Shown here: piece by piece, positions 17,222 to 48,844 of the stretch | Layout: the number at the start of each line of letters is the position of its first letter | How positions within the stretch are numbered: the stretch's first letter is position 1 | Source of the DNA: a virus | Strand: one strand, 5' to 3' | Virus record (IMG/VR): IMGVR_UViG_3300035490_000050 | Location: 72,455-136,454 of that record | DNA: 64,000 nt | Translations under genes and position numbers: made by a program | The notes under the pieces: model-generated | The model's database searches: none | What the model was told of the DNA's origin: nothing | The model's input: the letters and a program-made list of their open reading frames with translations, nothing else

Positions 17222-17306
17222 GCGAGATTGGCGAAATTGGGAGCCGCGTCCGATTTAAGATCGGATTCCTTTGGGAGTATGGGTTCAAGTCCCTTATCTC
17301 GCACCA
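17222..17306 (+). tRNA. tRNA-Leu(TAA)
   Basis: Cloverleaf, loop TT-TAA-GA, V-arm, CCA. Confidence 0.92.
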
Positions 17307-24733: not shown

Positions 24734-24808
24734 CAACCCGTCGTTCAACGGAAAGGACGATGCGCTACGAACGCATAAATGGGGATTCGACTTCCTCCGG
24801 GTTGACCA
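24734..24808 (+). tRNA. tRNA-Arg(ACG)
   Basis: Loop CT-ACG-AA, ACCA. Confidence 0.92.
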
Positions 24809-24902: not shown

Positions 24903-25027
24903 TGCGTCTACTGTTGAGCGTACATGATGACTAGCTCACTCGGTAGAGCGATTCCCTTCAAAGGAATAGGTCACTGGTTCGATTCCAGTGTCATCTACTT
25001 CGGTAGATCGCTCAACGTCTTGACGCA
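24903..25027 (+). ncRNA. Y-RNA-like RNA 1: outer stem with TACT/GTCTT loop enclosing a cloverleaf (anticodon TCA) and a UUCG hairpin
   Basis: TGCGTC/GACGCA and GTTGAGCG/CGCTCAAC stems; cloverleaf 24926-24995. Confidence 0.75.
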
Positions 25028-26217: not shown

Positions 26218-27711
26218 ATGGCAGAAACAGGGCTTACACGTCAAAGAATTTTGTCGGAATTGTCGAAGAGTCCACACGGCTCTTTGAAAGAGTATCTTCC
26301 TATCGGCAAACAGGCCGTTCAACAGGAAGGTGAATTTTATCAACACATGCTTGCCTGGGATAGGACGCATGGGCAGATTAGGGACAGCAAGGTTGCGCTT
26401 CCTGTGATCGGCTTGGCTTTTGAGAAGGATGAGGAATTACTCGACAACAGCCTTGCTCACATCGCTCTTTTGGGGCCGCGTGAACTGGCAAGAGCATATC
26501 GGTTTGGATTGGAGATTCGTCTCCCTGGCAAGATGCGTCAGTTGCGTAGGCTTGTCGAAGACTACCTACACCAAAAGGAGCAAGACAAAGGTTGGGATCA
26601 TCTGGCAATCCAGCACAGGGGTACGCTGAAGGAACTCTACTCTCTGGCGCACGCAAAGCCTGAAAAGGAGAGAACCAACGTCGTTCTCTATGGCAGGAAC
26701 TTCGACAAGACAAAGGCACCGCTGCCCAAGGGATCAGTCTTTGAGGTAGTAGCAAACCTCAAGAACATGAGTCCTACGGAGGCTGCTGGTTCGATCATGA
26801 AGTACCGGATTCCTTTCCTTATCGCCATGGGCGCGTTAGGCGCAAAGGCGAAGGAGCCGGATTTGGTACTGGCTTTGATCGGAGCCATGTCTGCAACGGA
26901 GTTGACCACGAACGTCAAGATGCTGGAGAAGTTGGGCCTGAAGACGAATCCTGCGCTGCGTGGGGCATTCGACAACGCATTGGCTAAGGCGGCTACGTCG
27001 AAGAAGAATACGCTCAAGACGACTCAGGCGGTCGAGGCCGTACAGGACGAGGGATTGAAGGAGAAGCTCCGTGGACTACAGGCAAAGCAGATAGCGGCTG
27101 CGGGTGGTCCAGACGGCGACTGGGTAATTTTAGTTGACAAATCTGGATCGATGCACCATGCAATCGAAACTGGTTGCCATGTTGCAGGGGCGCTCACACA
27201 GTTCGTCAAAGGAAAGGTTGGGTTGATTTTCTTCGATACCTCTCCTATGGCGGTGGACGTAACCGGCTTGTCGCTGGACCAAATCAAGAAGGCGACACGA
27301 CACTTCACAGCGAACGGTGGAACATCCATCGGCTGCGGTCTGAATCGGATGCTGGTAGAGAAAGTTGCTGTGGATGGAATTGTGATCGTGTCGGACGGTG
27401 GAGACAACACTGCTCCACTATTCCATGACGTATATCCGAAGTACGCGAAATTCTGCGATAAGGATGTGCCGGTGTATTTCTACCAACTTAGCGGAGAATC
27501 GGACAAGCTGACGCCGAACATGCAACGGGCAGGAATCGAGATGACAACATTCGATTTGCGCGGTTCAAAGCTGGACTACTACAGCATTCCGAACACGGTC
27601 AAGACGCTTCGCAGTAACCAGTACAGTTTGGTTGAGGAAATACTCTCGACCCCGCTTTTAACCCTCAACACCGTGCTCAAGGGAGCGCAGAAAGGACTGG
27701 TGACAGTCTAA
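26218..27711 (+). CDS. TROVE/Ro60-like protein with C-terminal VWA domain
   Basis: Helical N-terminal domain (IRDSK.ALP, LKELY..AH.KP, MSATEL..N...LEK.G), MIDAS VDKSGSM, GGTSIG, IVIVSDGGDN; adjacent Y-like RNAs. Confidence 0.78.
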   Translation: MAETGLTRQRILSELSKSPHGSLKEYLPIGKQAVQQEGEFYQHMLAWDRTHGQIRDSKVALPVIGLAFEKDEELLDNSLAHIALLGPRELARAYRFGLEIRLPGKMRQLRRLVEDYLHQKEQDKGWDHLAIQHRGTLKELYSLAHAKPEKERTNVVLYGRNFDKTKAPLPKGSVFEVVANLKNMSPTEAAGSIMKYRIPFLIAMGALGAKAKEPDLVLALIGAMSATELTTNVKMLEKLGLKTNPALRGAFDNALAKAATSKKNTLKTTQAVEAVQDEGLKEKLRGLQAKQIAAAGGPDGDWVILVDKSGSMHHAIETGCHVAGALTQFVKGKVGLIFFDTSPMAVDVTGLSLDQIKKATRHFTANGGTSIGCGLNRMLVEKVAVDGIVIVSDGGDNTAPLFHDVYPKYAKFCDKDVPVYFYQLSGESDKLTPNMQRAGIEMTTFDLRGSKLDYYSIPNTVKTLRSNQYSLVEEILSTPLLTLNTVLKGAQKGLVTV

Positions 27712-28515: not shown

Positions 28516-28519
28516 AGTT

Positions 28520-28617
28520 GGAGCGGCGGCGCATAATTCACTGGCGGTATCGGACAGCTAAGACTACCGAGACGTGCAGAACTCACCGAAAGGTTAGCCG
28601 TTGCAGTGGGCCGCTCC
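28520..28617 (+). ncRNA. Unassigned structured RNA inside array 3
   Basis: GGAGCGGC/GCCGCTCC closing stem, CGGTA/TACCG and ACC-gaaa-GGT hairpins. Confidence 0.5.
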
Positions 28618-28677
28618 GAAAGTTCACGGCTGTAAAGCCTATACCGATGGCGCAAGGCCATCCTGCCGTGATTAAGT

Positions 28678-28700
28678 TTCGAGTCCTAGTGGGGGCACCA
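28678..28700 (+). pseudogene. Orphan tRNA 3' fragment
   Basis: TTCGAGTCCTAGTGGGGGCACCA with no matching 5' half. Confidence 0.55.
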
Positions 28701-28704
28701 TAGT

Positions 28705-28791
28705 GGAACCGTGGCCTAGTCTGGTTTTGGGCACCCGGCTCTTACCCGGCGCAGAAATGCAACGCAGGTTCAAATCCTGCCGGTTCCACCA
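28705..28791 (+). tRNA. tRNA-Lys(CTT) with long variable arm
   Basis: Loop CT-CTT-AC; V-arm GCA-gaaa-TGC; ACCA. Confidence 0.88.
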
Positions 28792-28801
28792 ACACTTTTA
28801 C

Positions 28802-28887
28802 GGAGTCGTACTCGAATTGGATGCAGAGACCTGACTTTTAATCAGCGGGGTAACCCAATGGGGGTTCGAGTCCCCCCGGCTCCACCA
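28802..28887 (+). tRNA. tRNA-Lys(TTT) with long variable arm
   Basis: Loop CT-TTT-AA; V-arm GGG-gtaa-CCC; ACCA. Confidence 0.88.
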
Positions 28888-28892
28888 GTTAC

Positions 28893-28969
28893 GCGGCGGT
28901 ATTCCCCTCGTCTTCTAAACGAGTAAGGATAATTGGAATATGTGAGTTCGATCCTCACCCGCTGCTCCA
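28893..28969 (+). tRNA. Non-canonical tRNA-Arg(TCT), D-arm relocated
   Basis: Acceptor, anticodon (CT-TCT-AA) and T arms intact; 7-nt linker instead of D arm; 18-nt variable region. Confidence 0.75.
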
Positions 28970-28973
28970 TTTT

Positions 28974-29050
28974 GGTCCCGTACCGGCCATGTTTCCTAAA
29001 CATGTAACCGTAAGTGGATGATGTCAGTTCGAGCCTGACCGGGACTTCCA
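28974..29050 (+). tRNA. Non-canonical tRNA-Arg(CCT), D-arm relocated
   Basis: Same geometry; loop TT-CCT-AA. Confidence 0.75.
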
Positions 29051-29054
29051 TTTT

Positions 29055-29131
29055 GCTGCCGTACCAGCCGCGCCTCCGAAGCGCGATACTGTAACTGAAT
29101 GATGCAGGTTTGAGTCCTGTCGGCAGCGCCA
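29055..29131 (+). tRNA. Non-canonical tRNA-Arg(CCG), D-arm relocated
   Basis: Same geometry; loop CT-CCG-AA. Confidence 0.75.
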
Positions 29132-29136
29132 GTTTT

Positions 29137-29214
29137 GGGAACGTGGGCCAGCGGCGACGCCACCTGTCCTACAAACAGGTATTACCGGAAGTTCGAGTCT
29201 TCCCGTTCCCACCA
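29137..29214 (+). tRNA. tRNA-Val(TAC), C33 variant
   Basis: Loop CC-TAC-AA, ACCA. Confidence 0.88.
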
Positions 29215-29290
29215 AGTTCGGAGTCCTACGGTTAGAAGCCGTGGGAGGTTACAACGAGCAGATGCAACACCTGCTACTCTGGGATGATTT

Positions 29291-29364
29291 GCCGATGTAG
29301 CTCAGTGATAGAGTGCCGCACTGGTATTGCGGTGACGAGGGTTTGATTCCCTCCTTCGGCCCCA
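29291..29364 (+). tRNA. tRNA-Thr(GGT)
   Basis: Loop CT-GGT-AT, CCA. Confidence 0.88.
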
Positions 29365-30250: not shown

Positions 30251-30531
30251 TGAGCCTCCAGAAGTTTCCTGTATTTCTTTTCTTCCTCTGCGCCGTGGAT
30301 TACCCGAATCGTTTTCATGCAATCCTCGTATCGACCAGGAGTTCCTTCCCATGTTTTGTCATCGTCTGCGCGTTGAACTTTCTCTTCCGATCCCTTCGGT
30401 CCAAGATCGTATTCGTCCACACAATACTTGACCGCTTCTTCTCTTGTGGCGTTGTACATAACGAAATGGTCTACGGGGTCGGAGAAAGCTGCATACTTAC
30501 CGTTGGGGGTCTTGACTATCCTGTGGGCCAT
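30247..30531 (-). CDS. Hypothetical protein
   Basis: TAATG coupling to ligase. Confidence 0.65.
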   Translation of the reverse strand: MAHRIVKTPNGKYAAFSDPVDHFVMYNATREEAVKYCVDEYDLGPKGSEEKVQRADDDKTWEGTPGRYEDCMKTIRVIHGAEEEKKYRKLLEAQ

Positions 30532-31499
30532 TACGACTTCTCCATATAACTGTTGCCCACGAGCTTCAAGTGGACCCGTCCAAGGTGTTCATGTATGCGC
30601 TCAGGTAAAGGCCGTACTACGATTCCTTCGCGGATATGGTTTGCGCCAGGAATTAGGCTAGGACCGTCAGATAACTTTACAAGCATATTAAAGTCGAACG
30701 GACCACCAAAGACGACAGGAACTCGCTTCTCTTCGGATAAATGAGCGGTCCAGTCATCGTATTCTCTCCATTCCCCGTTATGAAGCACATCGAAAGCGCG
30801 GAAGAAAACATCGTTGGGTTTAGCTCCGTACTTGAGGCTCTGCACGTTTCCGAAGACTTCCCCATAGAGAATATCGCTAGGAAACTTACGGCAGAATTCC
30901 TCAATCCACGGATGCTTTTCTAGCGCTCTCCACCATAGATTCCCCTCGTTCTTTGCCTTCCACTCGCCACGGCTACCGCAGTACATCCGGTTCTCTTCTG
31001 GCGCATAGACGAACCTGCTATTGGCTCCGTGAATCTTCTCGGTCGCAACGACCGGCTCCCCTTCCACGAATAGACTCTTGTAGCGGTACATTGACTCTAC
31101 GTCGTACTTTGGAGCGTAAAGGCCGATAGGACCACCTTCCACTTCACCGCAGCGCTCTCCGGGGATTGGAGGCTCGTAGTGAGTTACTCCGTAGTATTCA
31201 GCAACGTCATCCCCTTCCTGTGCGCCTTCGGGCGCTGGCATAAGCAGCCCCATAGAAACTACGCCGCGCAACTTCTTGACCTTGATGCGCTCGTGCCCTA
31301 CCAGAAAATCGAACTCAGGACGTGTCGAGTCCACAACAGAATCAGGTTGAATGTAAGCAGCCAATTGGCCGTCAACAAATGATCCTTTGAGGACGCAGCA
31401 AGTGAATCCGAATATACGGGCAACGTCAAGCCTTTCCGCGTTGCCGTGGGGTTCAATTTTCACTCGCACAACTTCTACCTTATGCGTCTGCTCTGCCAT
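30531..31499 (-). CDS. ATP-dependent RNA ligase, DRB0094/Rnl5 type
   Basis: N-terminal OB (IEPHGNAERL, KLRGVVSMGL), motif I TEKIHG, LYGEVFG, AFDV, REGIVV, LKL. Confidence 0.92.
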   Translation of the reverse strand: MAEQTHKVEVVRVKIEPHGNAERLDVARIFGFTCCVLKGSFVDGQLAAYIQPDSVVDSTRPEFDFLVGHERIKVKKLRGVVSMGLLMPAPEGAQEGDDVAEYYGVTHYEPPIPGERCGEVEGGPIGLYAPKYDVESMYRYKSLFVEGEPVVATEKIHGANSRFVYAPEENRMYCGSRGEWKAKNEGNLWWRALEKHPWIEEFCRKFPSDILYGEVFGNVQSLKYGAKPNDVFFRAFDVLHNGEWREYDDWTAHLSEEKRVPVVFGGPFDFNMLVKLSDGPSLIPGANHIREGIVVRPLPERIHEHLGRVHLKLVGNSYMEKS

Positions 31500-46781: not shown

Positions 46782-47726
46782 ATGGGCGGGGGAGCCTGGG
46801 ATAGCGGTGCATATCATTCGTCAGCAACCACTCGTAAGGCAACCGGCGTAGCCGATTTTGCCTATACCAAAACAGCAACGTCAGTTCACACGAACCTTGA
46901 CCCGCTGAGGATCAATAGCAAGCCTTTCGGAAAACTCGAAGCGCGTGACTCGACAGAGCATCCACAATCCAACCCTGTACTAGTTTGCTTTGACGTGACA
47001 GGCTCGAACTATGAGCGAGCAGTGGACGCGCAGAAGCGTTTGCCTAACCTGATGGAACTGCTCAACAAGTACCTGACTGATCCGCAAGTTGCGGTTGCGG
47101 CGAATGATGACTACAACTATGCGGGGTCCAACTGTGTTCAGCTTTCAGACTTCGAGAGTGACAACCGCGTAGACGATCACATTCGCAACATCTATCTGGT
47201 CTGTCTTGGAGGCGGCAATGATGGTGAGTCTTACGATCTGCTGCTCTACGCGGCAGCGCGGAAGATGGTGCTTGATTCTGTCGAGAAACGTGGGAAAAAG
47301 GGCTATATGTTCCTGTATGCCGATGAGCCAATCTTCACCCATGTTCAAGCGAAGGAAGTGAAGGCGATCTTCGGCGATACCATCGAAAAAGATATTCCTA
47401 TCGCGGAGATCATCGAAGAGGCCCGCAGGAACTTCAATATCTTCGTGATCTGGCCGGATGGTGGATACCGTCATGCTCGTGAGCAGTACGTCAGACTGTT
47501 TGGCGAGGAATCTGTGCTAACCAGCCAGCATCCAAATCTGCTTTGCGAGTTGATTGCTTCGACTATTGGCCTGTATGAGTCCAAGGCAACTCCGGCGTCG
47601 GTGGTCACTGACCTTGTGGCTATCGGCGTAGGAGATAGCGAAGCCAAGGCTCTAGTCAAGTCAATGAAGCATGTTACCACTGACTCACTGGCTACGTCTG
47701 GAGCGGGGAAGGCGGCAAGGCTGTGA
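46782..47726 (+). CDS. VWA-like protein
   Basis: MGGG.W, EARDS.EHP, DVTGS, GGGNDGESY, KRGKKGY.F..DE. Confidence 0.8.
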   Translation: MGGGAWDSGAYHSSATTRKATGVADFAYTKTATSVHTNLDPLRINSKPFGKLEARDSTEHPQSNPVLVCFDVTGSNYERAVDAQKRLPNLMELLNKYLTDPQVAVAANDDYNYAGSNCVQLSDFESDNRVDDHIRNIYLVCLGGGNDGESYDLLLYAAARKMVLDSVEKRGKKGYMFLYADEPIFTHVQAKEVKAIFGDTIEKDIPIAEIIEEARRNFNIFVIWPDGGYRHAREQYVRLFGEESVLTSQHPNLLCELIASTIGLYESKATPASVVTDLVAIGVGDSEAKALVKSMKHVTTDSLATSGAGKAARL

Positions 47727-48844
47727 GAGCAATCTCTGTAGCCGGGTTAGGTTTCGGCGACGAGTCCAAAGGGGCTACGGTGGATGCACTCTGCCGTAGC
47801 CTTCCAGTGGACTTAATCGTGCGGCATGGGGGTGGATCGCAATGCGCTCATAACGTGATTACCCCCGAAGGCGTACATCATACCTTTTCCCAGTTCGGCT
47901 CTGGAATGATGGCGAACGATCAAGTTAGGACGCATTTATCACGTTTTATGCTTATCGATCCAATTACCATGTTGAACGAGGCGGATGAGTTAGCCAAGAA
48001 AACTCCTGGCTGGTGGAGAAGATTGACCATATCCGCCAGATGTGTTGTTATTACACCTTTTCACAAGCGTCTCAACCGGCTTAGAGAGACGGCGCGTGGT
48101 ACGGGACGGCATGGAAGTTGTGGGATGGGAGTTGGGGTGGCGCGAGAGTTTGAATTGAAATACGGGCGCGATAATGTGCTCTGCGCGGAGGATATTTACG
48201 ATTGGGTGGACCTGCGAGAGAAATTGAAATTTCAGAAAAACCTTGTTCAAAAAGAAATGGGAGTAGAGGCTACCTCTGATCTAAATATTGAAGATATAAA
48301 GGTTGGGTATGATCGCTGGAAGGCATTTGTTCGTTTAGTACCGGAGGACAGTTCAATCATTGGCGAATCGAGGTGCATGGTTTTCGAGGGAGCGCAGGGA
48401 GTAATGCTGGACGAAAAGCACGGTACTGCTCCGCACAACACATGGACGAACACTACCTTTGAGAACGCCGATACGCTGCTTGACGAGATCGGTTGTACGG
48501 ACAGAATGAGGATTGGATGCCTGAGAACGTACTACACTCGTCACGGAGTAGGACCATTTCCGACCGAAGATAACACTCTTGATCTTCCTGAGCCGCACAA
48601 TGGAAACGACGGATTCCAAGGTAAGTTCCGCGTAGGACGCTTTGACTTCACTTTGGCTAAACAAGCACTAAGCATTGTTGGCGGGGTGGATGTATTGGCT
48701 TTGAGTCATCTCGACTACCTACCCCGCTTAGGATGGCAGGAACGAGTGTTTATTGATCGGGTCAGTGAACTCGCTCCTGTTGTTATGCAAGGGAGAGGCC
48801 CGACAGCGGCGCACAGGACAATCAATATGGAGGTAACGGCATGA
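47723..48844 (+). CDS. purA: Adenylosuccinate synthetase-like protein
   Basis: GLGFGDESKG, GG.Q.AH, GSCG.G, FEGAQG, RTY.TRHG.GPF, FRVG.FD, SHLD. Confidence 0.82.
   Translation: MRAISVAGLGFGDESKGATVDALCRSLPVDLIVRHGGGSQCAHNVITPEGVHHTFSQFGSGMMANDQVRTHLSRFMLIDPITMLNEADELAKKTPGWWRRLTISARCVVITPFHKRLNRLRETARGTGRHGSCGMGVGVAREFELKYGRDNVLCAEDIYDWVDLREKLKFQKNLVQKEMGVEATSDLNIEDIKVGYDRWKAFVRLVPEDSSIIGESRCMVFEGAQGVMLDEKHGTAPHNTWTNTTFENADTLLDEIGCTDRMRIGCLRTYYTRHGVGPFPTEDNTLDLPEPHNGNDGFQGKFRVGRFDFTLAKQALSIVGGVDVLALSHLDYLPRLGWQERVFIDRVSELAPVVMQGRGPTAAHRTINMEVTA

Follow-up and report, generated by a model that had tools for sequence, protein, structure and literature searches.

The locus studied here raises the question of how a phage with a single recognizable tRNA-Arg might read AGA, AGG and CGG, which together account for 1036 of the 2018 arginine codons (51%) in 142 crude ORFs taken genome-wide. 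The window, i.e. the whole stretch of 64,000 nucleotides that was analysed, makes up the right end of an IMG/VR virus record of 136,454 bp that CheckV classes as complete, and its PHROG and Pfam matches (a primase/helicase, a methyltransferase, an SbcC-like nuclease and an RNA ligase) fit a large tailed phage. ARAGORN reports 31 tRNA genes on the + strand between positions 17222 and 29525, representing all 20 amino acids, with arginine represented by the anticodon ACG alone. Two of the Lys tRNAs of the phage carry long variable arms, and the RNA ligase gene lies 1 kb from the array. Folding of the unassigned gaps at 28520-28704 and 29212-29292 gave no interpretable structure. Between tRNA-Lys(ttt) and tRNA-Val(tac) the array contains three 77-nt units separated by TTTT spacers, here termed t1, t2 and t3, which were not reported in the window by either the default or the mitochondrial mode of ARAGORN. 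Their features, together with the canonical tRNA-Arg, are as follows (helix X denotes the predicted pairing between the linker and the segment 3' of the anticodon arm; R1 is the covariance model described below; MFE, minimum free energy):

28893..28969, + strand: t1, predicted rewired tRNA-Arg gene (sequence; R1 95.9 bits; MFE fold)
28914-28916, + strand: t1 anticodon TCT, with acceptor strands at 28893-28899 and 28959-28965, discriminator T at 28966 and CCA at 28967-28969
28903..28905, + strand: t1 putative helix X 5' strand TCC, replacing D-stem 23-25 (pairs with 28927-28929)
28927..28929, + strand: t1 putative helix X 3' strand GGA, replacing D-stem 10-12 (sequence, MFE, covariation)
28930..28941, + strand: t1 connector TAATTGGAATAT, D-loop-like (putative A14, A15, G18 G19 and A20 equivalents) with a 48-like T last (family conservation and covariation)
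28974..29050, + strand: t2, predicted rewired tRNA-Arg gene (sequence; R1 96.3 bits; MFE fold)
28995-28997, + strand: t2 anticodon CCT, with acceptor strands at 28974-28980 and 29040-29046 (G1:U72), discriminator T at 29047 and CCA at 29048-29050
28984..28986, + strand: t2 putative helix X 5' strand CGG (pairs with 29008-29010)
29008..29010, + strand: t2 putative helix X 3' strand CCG (sequence, MFE, covariation)
29011..29022, + strand: t2 connector TAAGTGGATGAT, D-loop-like with a 48-like T (family conservation and covariation)
29055..29131, + strand: t3, predicted rewired tRNA-Arg gene (sequence; R1 95.1 bits; MFE fold)
29076-29078, + strand: t3 anticodon CCG, with acceptor strands at 29055-29061 and 29121-29127, discriminator G at 29128 and CCA at 29129-29131
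29065..29067, + strand: t3 putative helix X 5' strand CAG (pairs with 29089-29091)
29089..29091, + strand: t3 putative helix X 3' strand CTG (sequence, MFE, covariation)
29092..29103, + strand: t3 connector TAACTGAATGAT, with GA in place of GG, and T at the 56-like site of the T-loop (TTTGAGT, 29109-29115)
24734..24808, + strand: sole canonical tRNA-Arg of the phage, anticodon ACG (ARAGORN; D-loop AACGGAAA)

Each unit begins with a 7-nt acceptor strand, a 7-nt linker and a 5-bp stem closed by a 7-nt loop of the form C/T-T-anticodon-A-A, and continues with an 18-nt segment, a 5-bp T-stem with a TTCGA or TTTGA loop, the acceptor complement, the discriminator and an encoded CCA. The anticodon arm, with its 5-bp stem and its 7-nt loop containing U33, is canonical and the acceptor/T branch is of the 7/5 type, but there is neither a D hairpin nor a V hairpin, and only 5 nt separate A9 from the anticodon stem. 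Nucleotides 11-13 of each unit pair with three nucleotides 3' of the anticodon arm, after which comes the D-loop-like TAAYTGRA...AT; the connectors thus formed read (T)AAYTGGA... beside the D-loop AACGGAAA of the canonical tRNA-Arg. Every string quoted by the first-pass annotation, i.e. the linkers TATTCCC, TACCGGC and TACCAGC and the 18-nt segments, proved exact on re-reading, as did the pairing that it had read between nucleotides 4-6 of the linker and 4-6 of the segment (TCC/GGA, CGG/CCG and CAG/CTG), with TAANTGRA next.

A covariance model search, which the first-pass annotation had proposed as a check, recovered a large family outside the window. The model, R1, was built from t1-t3 with the proposed structure, and it separates members (46.9-96 bits) from ordinary tRNAs (at most 31 bits). 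The family comprises at least 166 matches, at least 138 of them unique, in at least 147 stretches from IMG/VR phage contigs, five contigs of metagenome-assembled genomes (MAGs) or isolates, and two cultured phages, with members ranging in length from 76 to 82 nt. Stretches were collected with two patterns derived from the window, that of set 1 covering the D-loop-like segment plus the T-arm and that of set 2 the 5' half; since these patterns fix parts of the motifs, the conservation of TAA..TGRA in set 1 and that of CGG/CCG and TCT/CCT in set 2 are partly ascertainment. Among the matches listed, the set 1 pattern led to a member in 37 of 53 IMG/VR stretches and the set 2 pattern, which hit at least 120 stretches, in 102 of the 108 new ones; in 185,579 species genomes the set 1 pattern hit at least 120 stretches, and five of the 120 listed contain a member. 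Rows with a linker of other than 7 nt, or in which no paired triplet followed by TA could be parsed, were left out of the structural comparisons (12 of 138 in the full set and 3 of 39 in set 1). A descriptor scan of 2.49 Mb that ignored the anticodon gave 117 unique matches; run on the reversed sequences, it gave 0. One apparent member, L035:5122-5197, was excluded as an ordinary tRNA forced onto the model.

The TCT-CCT-CCG trio itself is also present in the stretches L235 and L187. The five genome contigs belong to MAGs of Acidiferrales, Solibacter, Chthonomonadales and Micrarchaeota and to an Aminobacter isolate. The Acidiferrales contig (131 kb) is a related phage, given that its tRNA array is syntenic and that it also carries a primase/helicase homologous to that of the window; R1 had no match in 150 other sampled genomes of the phylum of this MAG, within the part of the first-look candidates that was scored. 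In the Aminobacter stretch three of eight ORFs match PHROG phage families of unknown function, which suggests a phage origin. When the trio was compared by BLAST with 50,697 phage records, no more than two weak matches resulted, both to Pseudomonas phages. Other members used as BLAST queries led to Atu_ph04, a phage of Agrobacterium, and SOVA965, a phage of Stenotrophomonas, each with a member confirmed by R1 at a place where its GenBank record shows no feature. Three Vibrio phages matched by other members at 72.6% identity were dropped, as R1 did not confirm them at E<=1e-5, and Tunturiibacter phage Tunturi_5 was set aside as well: it shares a tRNA-Gly (92%) with the phage, but its Arg tRNAs are ordinary. 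As to habitat, a 601-bp stretch was recovered in 15 DNA runs from peat, wetland, soil or freshwater at 0.32 or more of its sampled words, and two of these runs may be its source.

The linker-segment pairing can be assessed both in single sequences and across the family. When t1, t2 and t3 are folded singly, the MFE structure of each consists of the acceptor, anticodon and T helices plus the 3-bp helix X, at an ensemble frequency of 0.10-0.19; in t1 a rival 6-bp pairing, TATTCC/GGAATA, appears in the centroid structure. In set 1, the pattern of which leaves helix X unconstrained, all three pairs form in 31 of 36 unique rows and fall into six types (CGG/CCG 20, CAG/CTG 3, CTC/GAG 3, TCC/GGA 2, CAC/GTG 2 and CCG/CGG 1), while the remaining five rows make up a subclass that can be drawn with a bulged G in a 4-bp helix. 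When partners were permuted among these types, 3 of 10000 trials reached the count observed, and shifted registers paired in 0-2 rows. The 126 parsed rows of the full set add ACC/GGT and CCC/GGG, giving eight complementary types. In a gap-free alignment (A6) of 27 members, each 77 nt long, helix X is paired in 100% of cells, and all three of its pairs have changed on both sides with no one-sided changes. The structure as a whole is paired in 98.1% of the A6 cells, compared with 70.3% after shuffling (0 of 500 shuffles as high; because the sequences are related, neither the shuffle nor the Fisher figures are probabilities) and 37-47% in slid registers, with 98.9% in the 7-bp acceptor stem and 98.5% in the 5-bp T-stem; RNAalifold returns the same structure de novo from the alignment. 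The T-loop in A6 is of the TTCRA type with T55, T56, G58 and A59 invariant.

The connector provides a further set of signals, which resemble tertiary contacts of canonical tRNAs. In 88 unique sequences, found with no constraint beyond the first two letters of the segment, it is 11-16 nt long, contains GG in all 88, has A after the GG in 82 and ends in AT in 81. Its third and last nucleotides (A-T 116, G-C 5, G-G 3, A-C 1, T-A 1, G-T 0) covary in the manner of the Levitt pair R15:Y48, the G-C combination occurring in at least four lineages. At the 19:56-like pair 125 of 126 rows have GG with C and one has GA with T, a covariation that hangs on this one double change, which is that of t3 alone; its orthologue L235:2273-2349 shares its acceptor and T stems yet combines GG with C (TTCGAGT). 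A second candidate change at this pair, L205:12773-12854 (GT with TTAAAGT), was left out, its helix X not being complementary and its score being 40 bits. The linker triplet is contiguous with the 5' strand of the anticodon stem, as 22-25 plus 26 (equally 23-25 plus 26) are in a normal tRNA, and U-A-R...GG-A...A-Y comes after the post-anticodon triplet in the way that 14-21 come after 10-13. Because the contexts of both triplets match the canonical order, the core can be described as a circular permutation of the module made up of D-arm, anticodon arm and variable loop. The new joints (9 to 22/23, 45 to 10 and 21 to 48) link nucleotides that are neighbours in the canonical core of tRNA crystal structures, and the rewiring is sterically plausible because all three do so.

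In the structure proposed on these grounds, U8-A9 and one spacer nucleotide would be followed by a triplet standing in for the 3' strand of the D-stem (23-25), which would run through one 26-like nucleotide straight into the anticodon stem. On the 3' side of the anticodon arm, 3-5 nt would represent a remnant of 44-47, and after them would come the 10-12-like partner triplet, a U and the D-loop-like run A14-R15-N(1-3)-G18-G19-A20-N(2-8)-A, with a final Y48-like base leading to the T-stem. The secondary structure would be a three-way junction with helix X stacked on the anticodon stem, and in three dimensions the usual layers 8:14, 15:48, 18:55 and 19:56 would be rebuilt to give the L shape. 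The suggestion of the first-pass annotation that the 5' strand of the D-stem and the D-loop have moved 3' of the anticodon arm with the L shape kept is thus supported by the covariation of helix X and of the 15:48-like pair and by the GG, the three-dimensional fold being a prediction.

The expectation that standard scanners may miss these genes held in large part. ARAGORN calls two of the 166 family matches listed, and with lowered thresholds it returns mis-registered 78-86-nt 'Arg' calls alongside obvious false ones. In Rfam at E<=10, t1 gives a 22.5-bit tRNA-Sec match only and t2 and t3 give none, and none of the three reaches the 29-bit gathering score of the tRNA model (RF00005). For a minority the expectation failed: four of 13 members in six other stretches pass that score with 35.9-39 bits, so covariance-model tools may catch a minority of the family. 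When the segments were re-ordered in silico into the canonical order, ARAGORN calls rose from 0 to 123 of 126, but as two controls also gave 122 and 99, the test says little on helix X.

With respect to amino acid identity, the 117 descriptor matches carry 114 arginine anticodons (TCT 85, CCT 22, CCG 4, ACG 2 and TCG 1) and three isoleucine ones (TAT, TAT and GAT), and with a GCG among the R1 matches all six arginine anticodons are represented in the family; the same descriptor-scanned stretches contain 882 ordinary tRNAs for every amino acid. According to the identity table in the available text of PMC9976931, the bacterial arginine determinants are A20, C35, U/G36 and A/G73, with U73 also entered. 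The anticodons TCT, CCT and CCG of t1-t3 all provide C35 and U/G36, and in each gene an A follows the dinucleotide at the GG place, which by sequence order is the place of A20. Family-wide, C35, U/G36 and an A at the putative A20 place agree with this set, and so in most cases does the discriminator (among the 88 sequences A 39, G 38, T 9 and C 2); t3 has G73, while t1 and t2 have T73, the minority discriminator. The three members with isoleucine anticodons have T after GG in two cases and A73 in all three, in agreement, within so small a sample (n=3), with the isoleucine entries seen in the same table (PMC9976931).

The genomic distribution is complementary to that of canonical Arg tRNAs. Of the 147 stretches listed, 2 combine a rewired member with a canonical Arg tRNA of identical anticodon and 37 with one whose anticodon differs, and in 35 the rewired member is the only tRNA found. 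As predicted for the phage studied here, arginine decoding is completed by the canonical ACG tRNA plus t1-t3. No ArgRS gene was found in this phage, nor in 39 further virus records (14 of which are at least 90% complete), and so a host enzyme would have to charge these tRNAs; the one ArgRS match in that search was a bacterial MAG's own gene, on another contig. The host ArgRS would do so via the A20 equivalent, C35, U/G36 and position 73, and the charged t1-t3 would then read AGA, AGG and CGG, the codons for which this phage has no other tRNA.

As for expression, four RNA-library runs were available as contigs only. One contig covers 28967-29052, i.e. t2, with 1 difference, and a second bridges a Lys(ttt) gene and a rewired TCT gene, the latter of the L187 type. 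These two contigs, from two libraries, are what touches the family, and the rest of the stretch is without cover and uninformative. They give a weak hint of transcription, and only a weak one because DNA can be present in RNA libraries.

We consider it probable that t1-t3 are functional tRNA-Arg of a large peat or soil phage with a circularly permuted core and charged by the host ArgRS, with fold, charging and decoding all predicted from sequence comparison. That scanners miss them might have pointed to decaying pseudogenes or chance look-alikes, but the compensatory change in every helix over at least 138 unique sequences, the empty reversed control and the recurrence of the trio in L235 and L187 leave this with hardly any probability, and we regard it as refuted for practical purposes. 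They could also simply lack the D-arm and have a variable region that is long and floppy, helix X being absent in the cell and the shape as loose as in nematode mitochondria; helix X has only 3 bp and the MFE structure a low ensemble frequency. Yet its three pairs all covary, never by a one-sided change, and the 15:48-like covariation and the invariant GG, with the canonical T-loop, would indicate a rigid elbow, all of which makes such a floppy molecule very improbable.

The remaining alternatives accept the fold and question the use. The tRNAs may work with another or a mixed identity, the ArgRS refusing the moved A20 or AlaRS charging t1, such that AGR and CGG would be recoded or mistranslated. 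G3:U70 is an alanine determinant, and t1 carries this pair as the sole G:U there among the 27 A6 rows, so its identity could be mixed; isoleucine anticodons occur on the same architecture in three cases, and t1 and t2 share the T73. Nevertheless, the TCT genes of relatives lack G3:U70, the C35, U/G36, A20-like base and A/G73 are kept family-wide, and a recoding of half of the arginine codons is hard to envisage, all of which renders this identity shift improbable. Somewhat more room, though still little, should be given to tRNA-like decoys or regulators outside translation, for instance baits for host anticodon nucleases or ligands of another tRNA-binding factor. The odd architecture, the presence of odd Lys tRNAs and of an RNA ligase beside the array, and the idea raised in the available text of PMC12409363 that overexpressed viral tRNAs are perhaps AriB inhibitors would all suit such a role. 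Against it, the anticodon, U33, 7-nt loop, 7/5 branch, CCA, A20-like base and A/G73 are all retained, the genes supply exactly the missing arginine isoacceptors, and the 35 listed stretches in which a member is the sole tRNA fit codon supplementation; a decoy function is accordingly unlikely beside that of working tRNA-Arg.

By their predicted structure the rewired genes are tRNAs with a new architecture, and several known systems help to delimit it. The animal mitochondrial D-arm-less tRNA-Ser (mammalian tRNA-Ser(AGY) and nematode tRNA-Ser(UCU)), which are used in translation, likewise lack the D hairpin and have a short connector between the acceptor stem and the anticodon arm; as described in the available parts of PMC7609411 and PMC4394434, they are short and flexible, with an L1 connector of 5-12 nt and atypical T-loops, and they act in organelles with adapted factors. 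In contrast, the phage tRNAs are of full length (76-82 nt, and 77 nt in t1-t3) and have a canonical T-loop, the GG of the elbow in 88 of 88, a D-stem-like helix and a Levitt-type pair, and they would have to work on ordinary bacterial machinery. That such machinery may accept a non-cloverleaf tRNA is indicated by the engineered E. coli 'mini HisT', which lacks the D-arm and is taken by HisRS, EF-Tu and the ribosome; unlike the phage tRNAs, it is man-made, its D-arm is deleted and not relocated, and a pnp mutation is needed for its stability (PMC11551756, available text). The same 2024 source states that known bacterial tRNAs are all cloverleaf (PMC11551756). Allo-tRNAs and the (8/4) and (9/3) tRNAs are natural, non-standard and metagenomic, including cases from Acidobacteria and phages, but the available text of PMC5389517 describes them as altering the 12-bp acceptor/T split with the D-arm kept, while in the phage tRNAs the split is 7/5 and the core re-ordered; t1-t3 show neither the 8/4 or 9/3 branch nor the long V-arm or long D-stem of allo-tRNAs.

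A full-text literature search, with subscription journals outside its scope, found no description of this architecture. Permutation is known from the tRNA genes of the red alga Cyanidioschyzon, where the gene is circularly permuted and processing restores a normal tRNA; the phage genes, by contrast, have normal termini, and their permutation lies within the molecule and would stay in the mature RNA. In its available portion, a review from 2020 on non-canonical tRNAs lists none from phages. In a 2023 viral catalogue the candidate structured RNA DNAVirus_2961 sometimes overlaps ARAGORN tRNA-Arg calls, as far as the available text goes (PMC10690425), and it could be related to the rewired tRNAs, unrecognised as such.

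Why a phage should carry such tRNAs is a separate question. Our leading guess, a tentative one, is that the rewiring lets these tRNAs evade host enzymes by which canonical tRNA-Arg is attacked or marked. In the available text of PMC12409363, tRNAs are common targets of bacterial immunity and phage tRNAs evade it by sequence change: phage T5 tRNA variants escape PARIS/AriB, and AriB also contacts the D-loop. The T5 variants carry point substitutions in a canonical fold and have a proven role, whereas in the rewired tRNAs it is the fold that is changed and evasion is a guess (PMC12409363). The two long-variable-arm Lys tRNAs and the RNA ligase gene near the array are in keeping with counter-defence. 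Against it, we know of no nuclease that uses the D-arm to target tRNA-Arg. A neutral origin, by tandem duplication with one lineage spreading, fits equally well the restriction to arginine plus isoleucine, the latter being one anticodon mutation away.

At its broadest, and only as a possibility that we hold to be doubtful, these may be widespread natural non-cloverleaf tRNAs acting on bacterial ribosomes in many phage hosts, derived from one phage lineage that permuted the tRNA-Arg core, with every tertiary layer kept and with the six arginine anticodons plus isoleucine; they might have spread because they escape the quality control or tRNA-targeting immunity of the host and yet remain acceptable to its ArgRS, EF-Tu and ribosome. 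If they are charged and decode, they would be a natural and common exception to the cloverleaf-only rule of bacterial-type translation. This would mean that the tRNA core tolerates changed strand connectivity provided that its tertiary layers are rebuilt, and the family would constitute a natural experiment on the requirements of the L shape. For annotation it implies that arginine tRNAs are under-counted in the tRNA sets of phages and in the analyses of codon usage and host prediction that use them. They might also serve engineering, as evolution-tested scaffolds for orthogonal tRNAs. In terms of phage biology they offer a candidate, open to testing, for tRNA-based counter-defence taken to an extreme, and the two cultured phage-host pairs make the rewired tRNAs testable now.

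The rewired architecture, in which the D hairpin is absent and a D-stem-like strand and D-loop-like segment lie 3' of the anticodon arm, extends beyond arginine anticodons, with three members bearing isoleucine anticodons on other stretches of DNA. These are listed with helix X, the 3-bp pairing between linker nucleotides 4-6 and nucleotides 4-6 of the post-anticodon segment:

L039:3580-3659, minus strand, anticodon TAT, helix X ACC/GGT
L263:396-475, plus strand, anticodon TAT, helix X CCC/GGG
L026:4514-4593, plus strand, anticodon GAT, helix X TCC/GGA

All three possess A73, and in two of them the base following GG is T. A further member from Aminobacter sp. AP02 (L066:6346-6423), in a stretch that also contains phage-family ORFs, shows an apparent 8-nt anticodon loop around TCT; this copy may hence be decaying or cause frameshifting.

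Within the window, the TCT gene (t1) displays G3:U70 (positions 28895 and 28963), by which AlaRS recognizes tRNA-Ala. None of the other 26 aligned family members (27 in all) has a G:U at this pair, so this AGA reader might be partly charged with alanine. In t1 the linker (28900-28905) can also pair over 6 bp with the D-loop-like segment (28935-28940), TATTCC/GGAATA; this rival pairing is confined to t1 and is not conserved in the rewired family.

In the related phage contig L094 the TCT gene is canonical, unlike the rewired CCT gene of the same phage. An ORF with cysteine pairs (about 5056-4603, minus strand), HNH-like by eye, has the full CCT gene on one side and, on the other, 11 nt that duplicate that gene's 5' end; the arrangement looks like a homing-endonuclease insertion.

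The tRNA array in the window includes other unusual genes:

28705-28791 and 28802-28887, tRNA-Lys (ctt and ttt), 86-87 nt, both with an additional variable-region hairpin
24925-24998, tRNA with anticodon TCA, 74 nt, labeled SeC by ARAGORN

Such a hairpin and length are atypical among lysine tRNAs, and the sole Rfam score of tRNA-Lys(ttt) is a 30-bit match to the tmRNA clan. Two gaps in the array (28516-28704 and 29215-29290) yielded neither a gene call nor an Rfam match. In the former, the ends form an 8-bp helix (GGAGCGGC/GCCGCTCC), and a family-like string, GTATCGGA, is present; at the matching place in L094, 92 nt are called as 'Ile(tat)', and this call has a long variable arm. The TCA tRNA is of ordinary type-I size despite its SeC label; its anticodon would decode the stop codon TGA, which the phage may therefore suppress or recode.

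Three protein-coding genes of the phage are also of note:

26218-27711, plus strand, 497-aa protein with a VWA/CoxE-like domain and a weak match to the PHROG 'RNA-binding protein'
30531-31499, minus strand, RNA ligase (Pfam RNA_ligase, 6.2e-22; PHA02142 OB-fold)
47723-48844, plus strand, strong PHROG match (1.8e-60), the family being that of PurZ-type, adenylosuccinate-synthetase-like enzymes

The first of these, encoded within the tRNA region, could be a Ro-like RNA-binding protein. The ligase gene, which is 1 kb away from where the array ends, may be used in tRNA repair. The PurZ-type gene suggests that the phage DNA may contain 2-aminoadenine in place of adenine.
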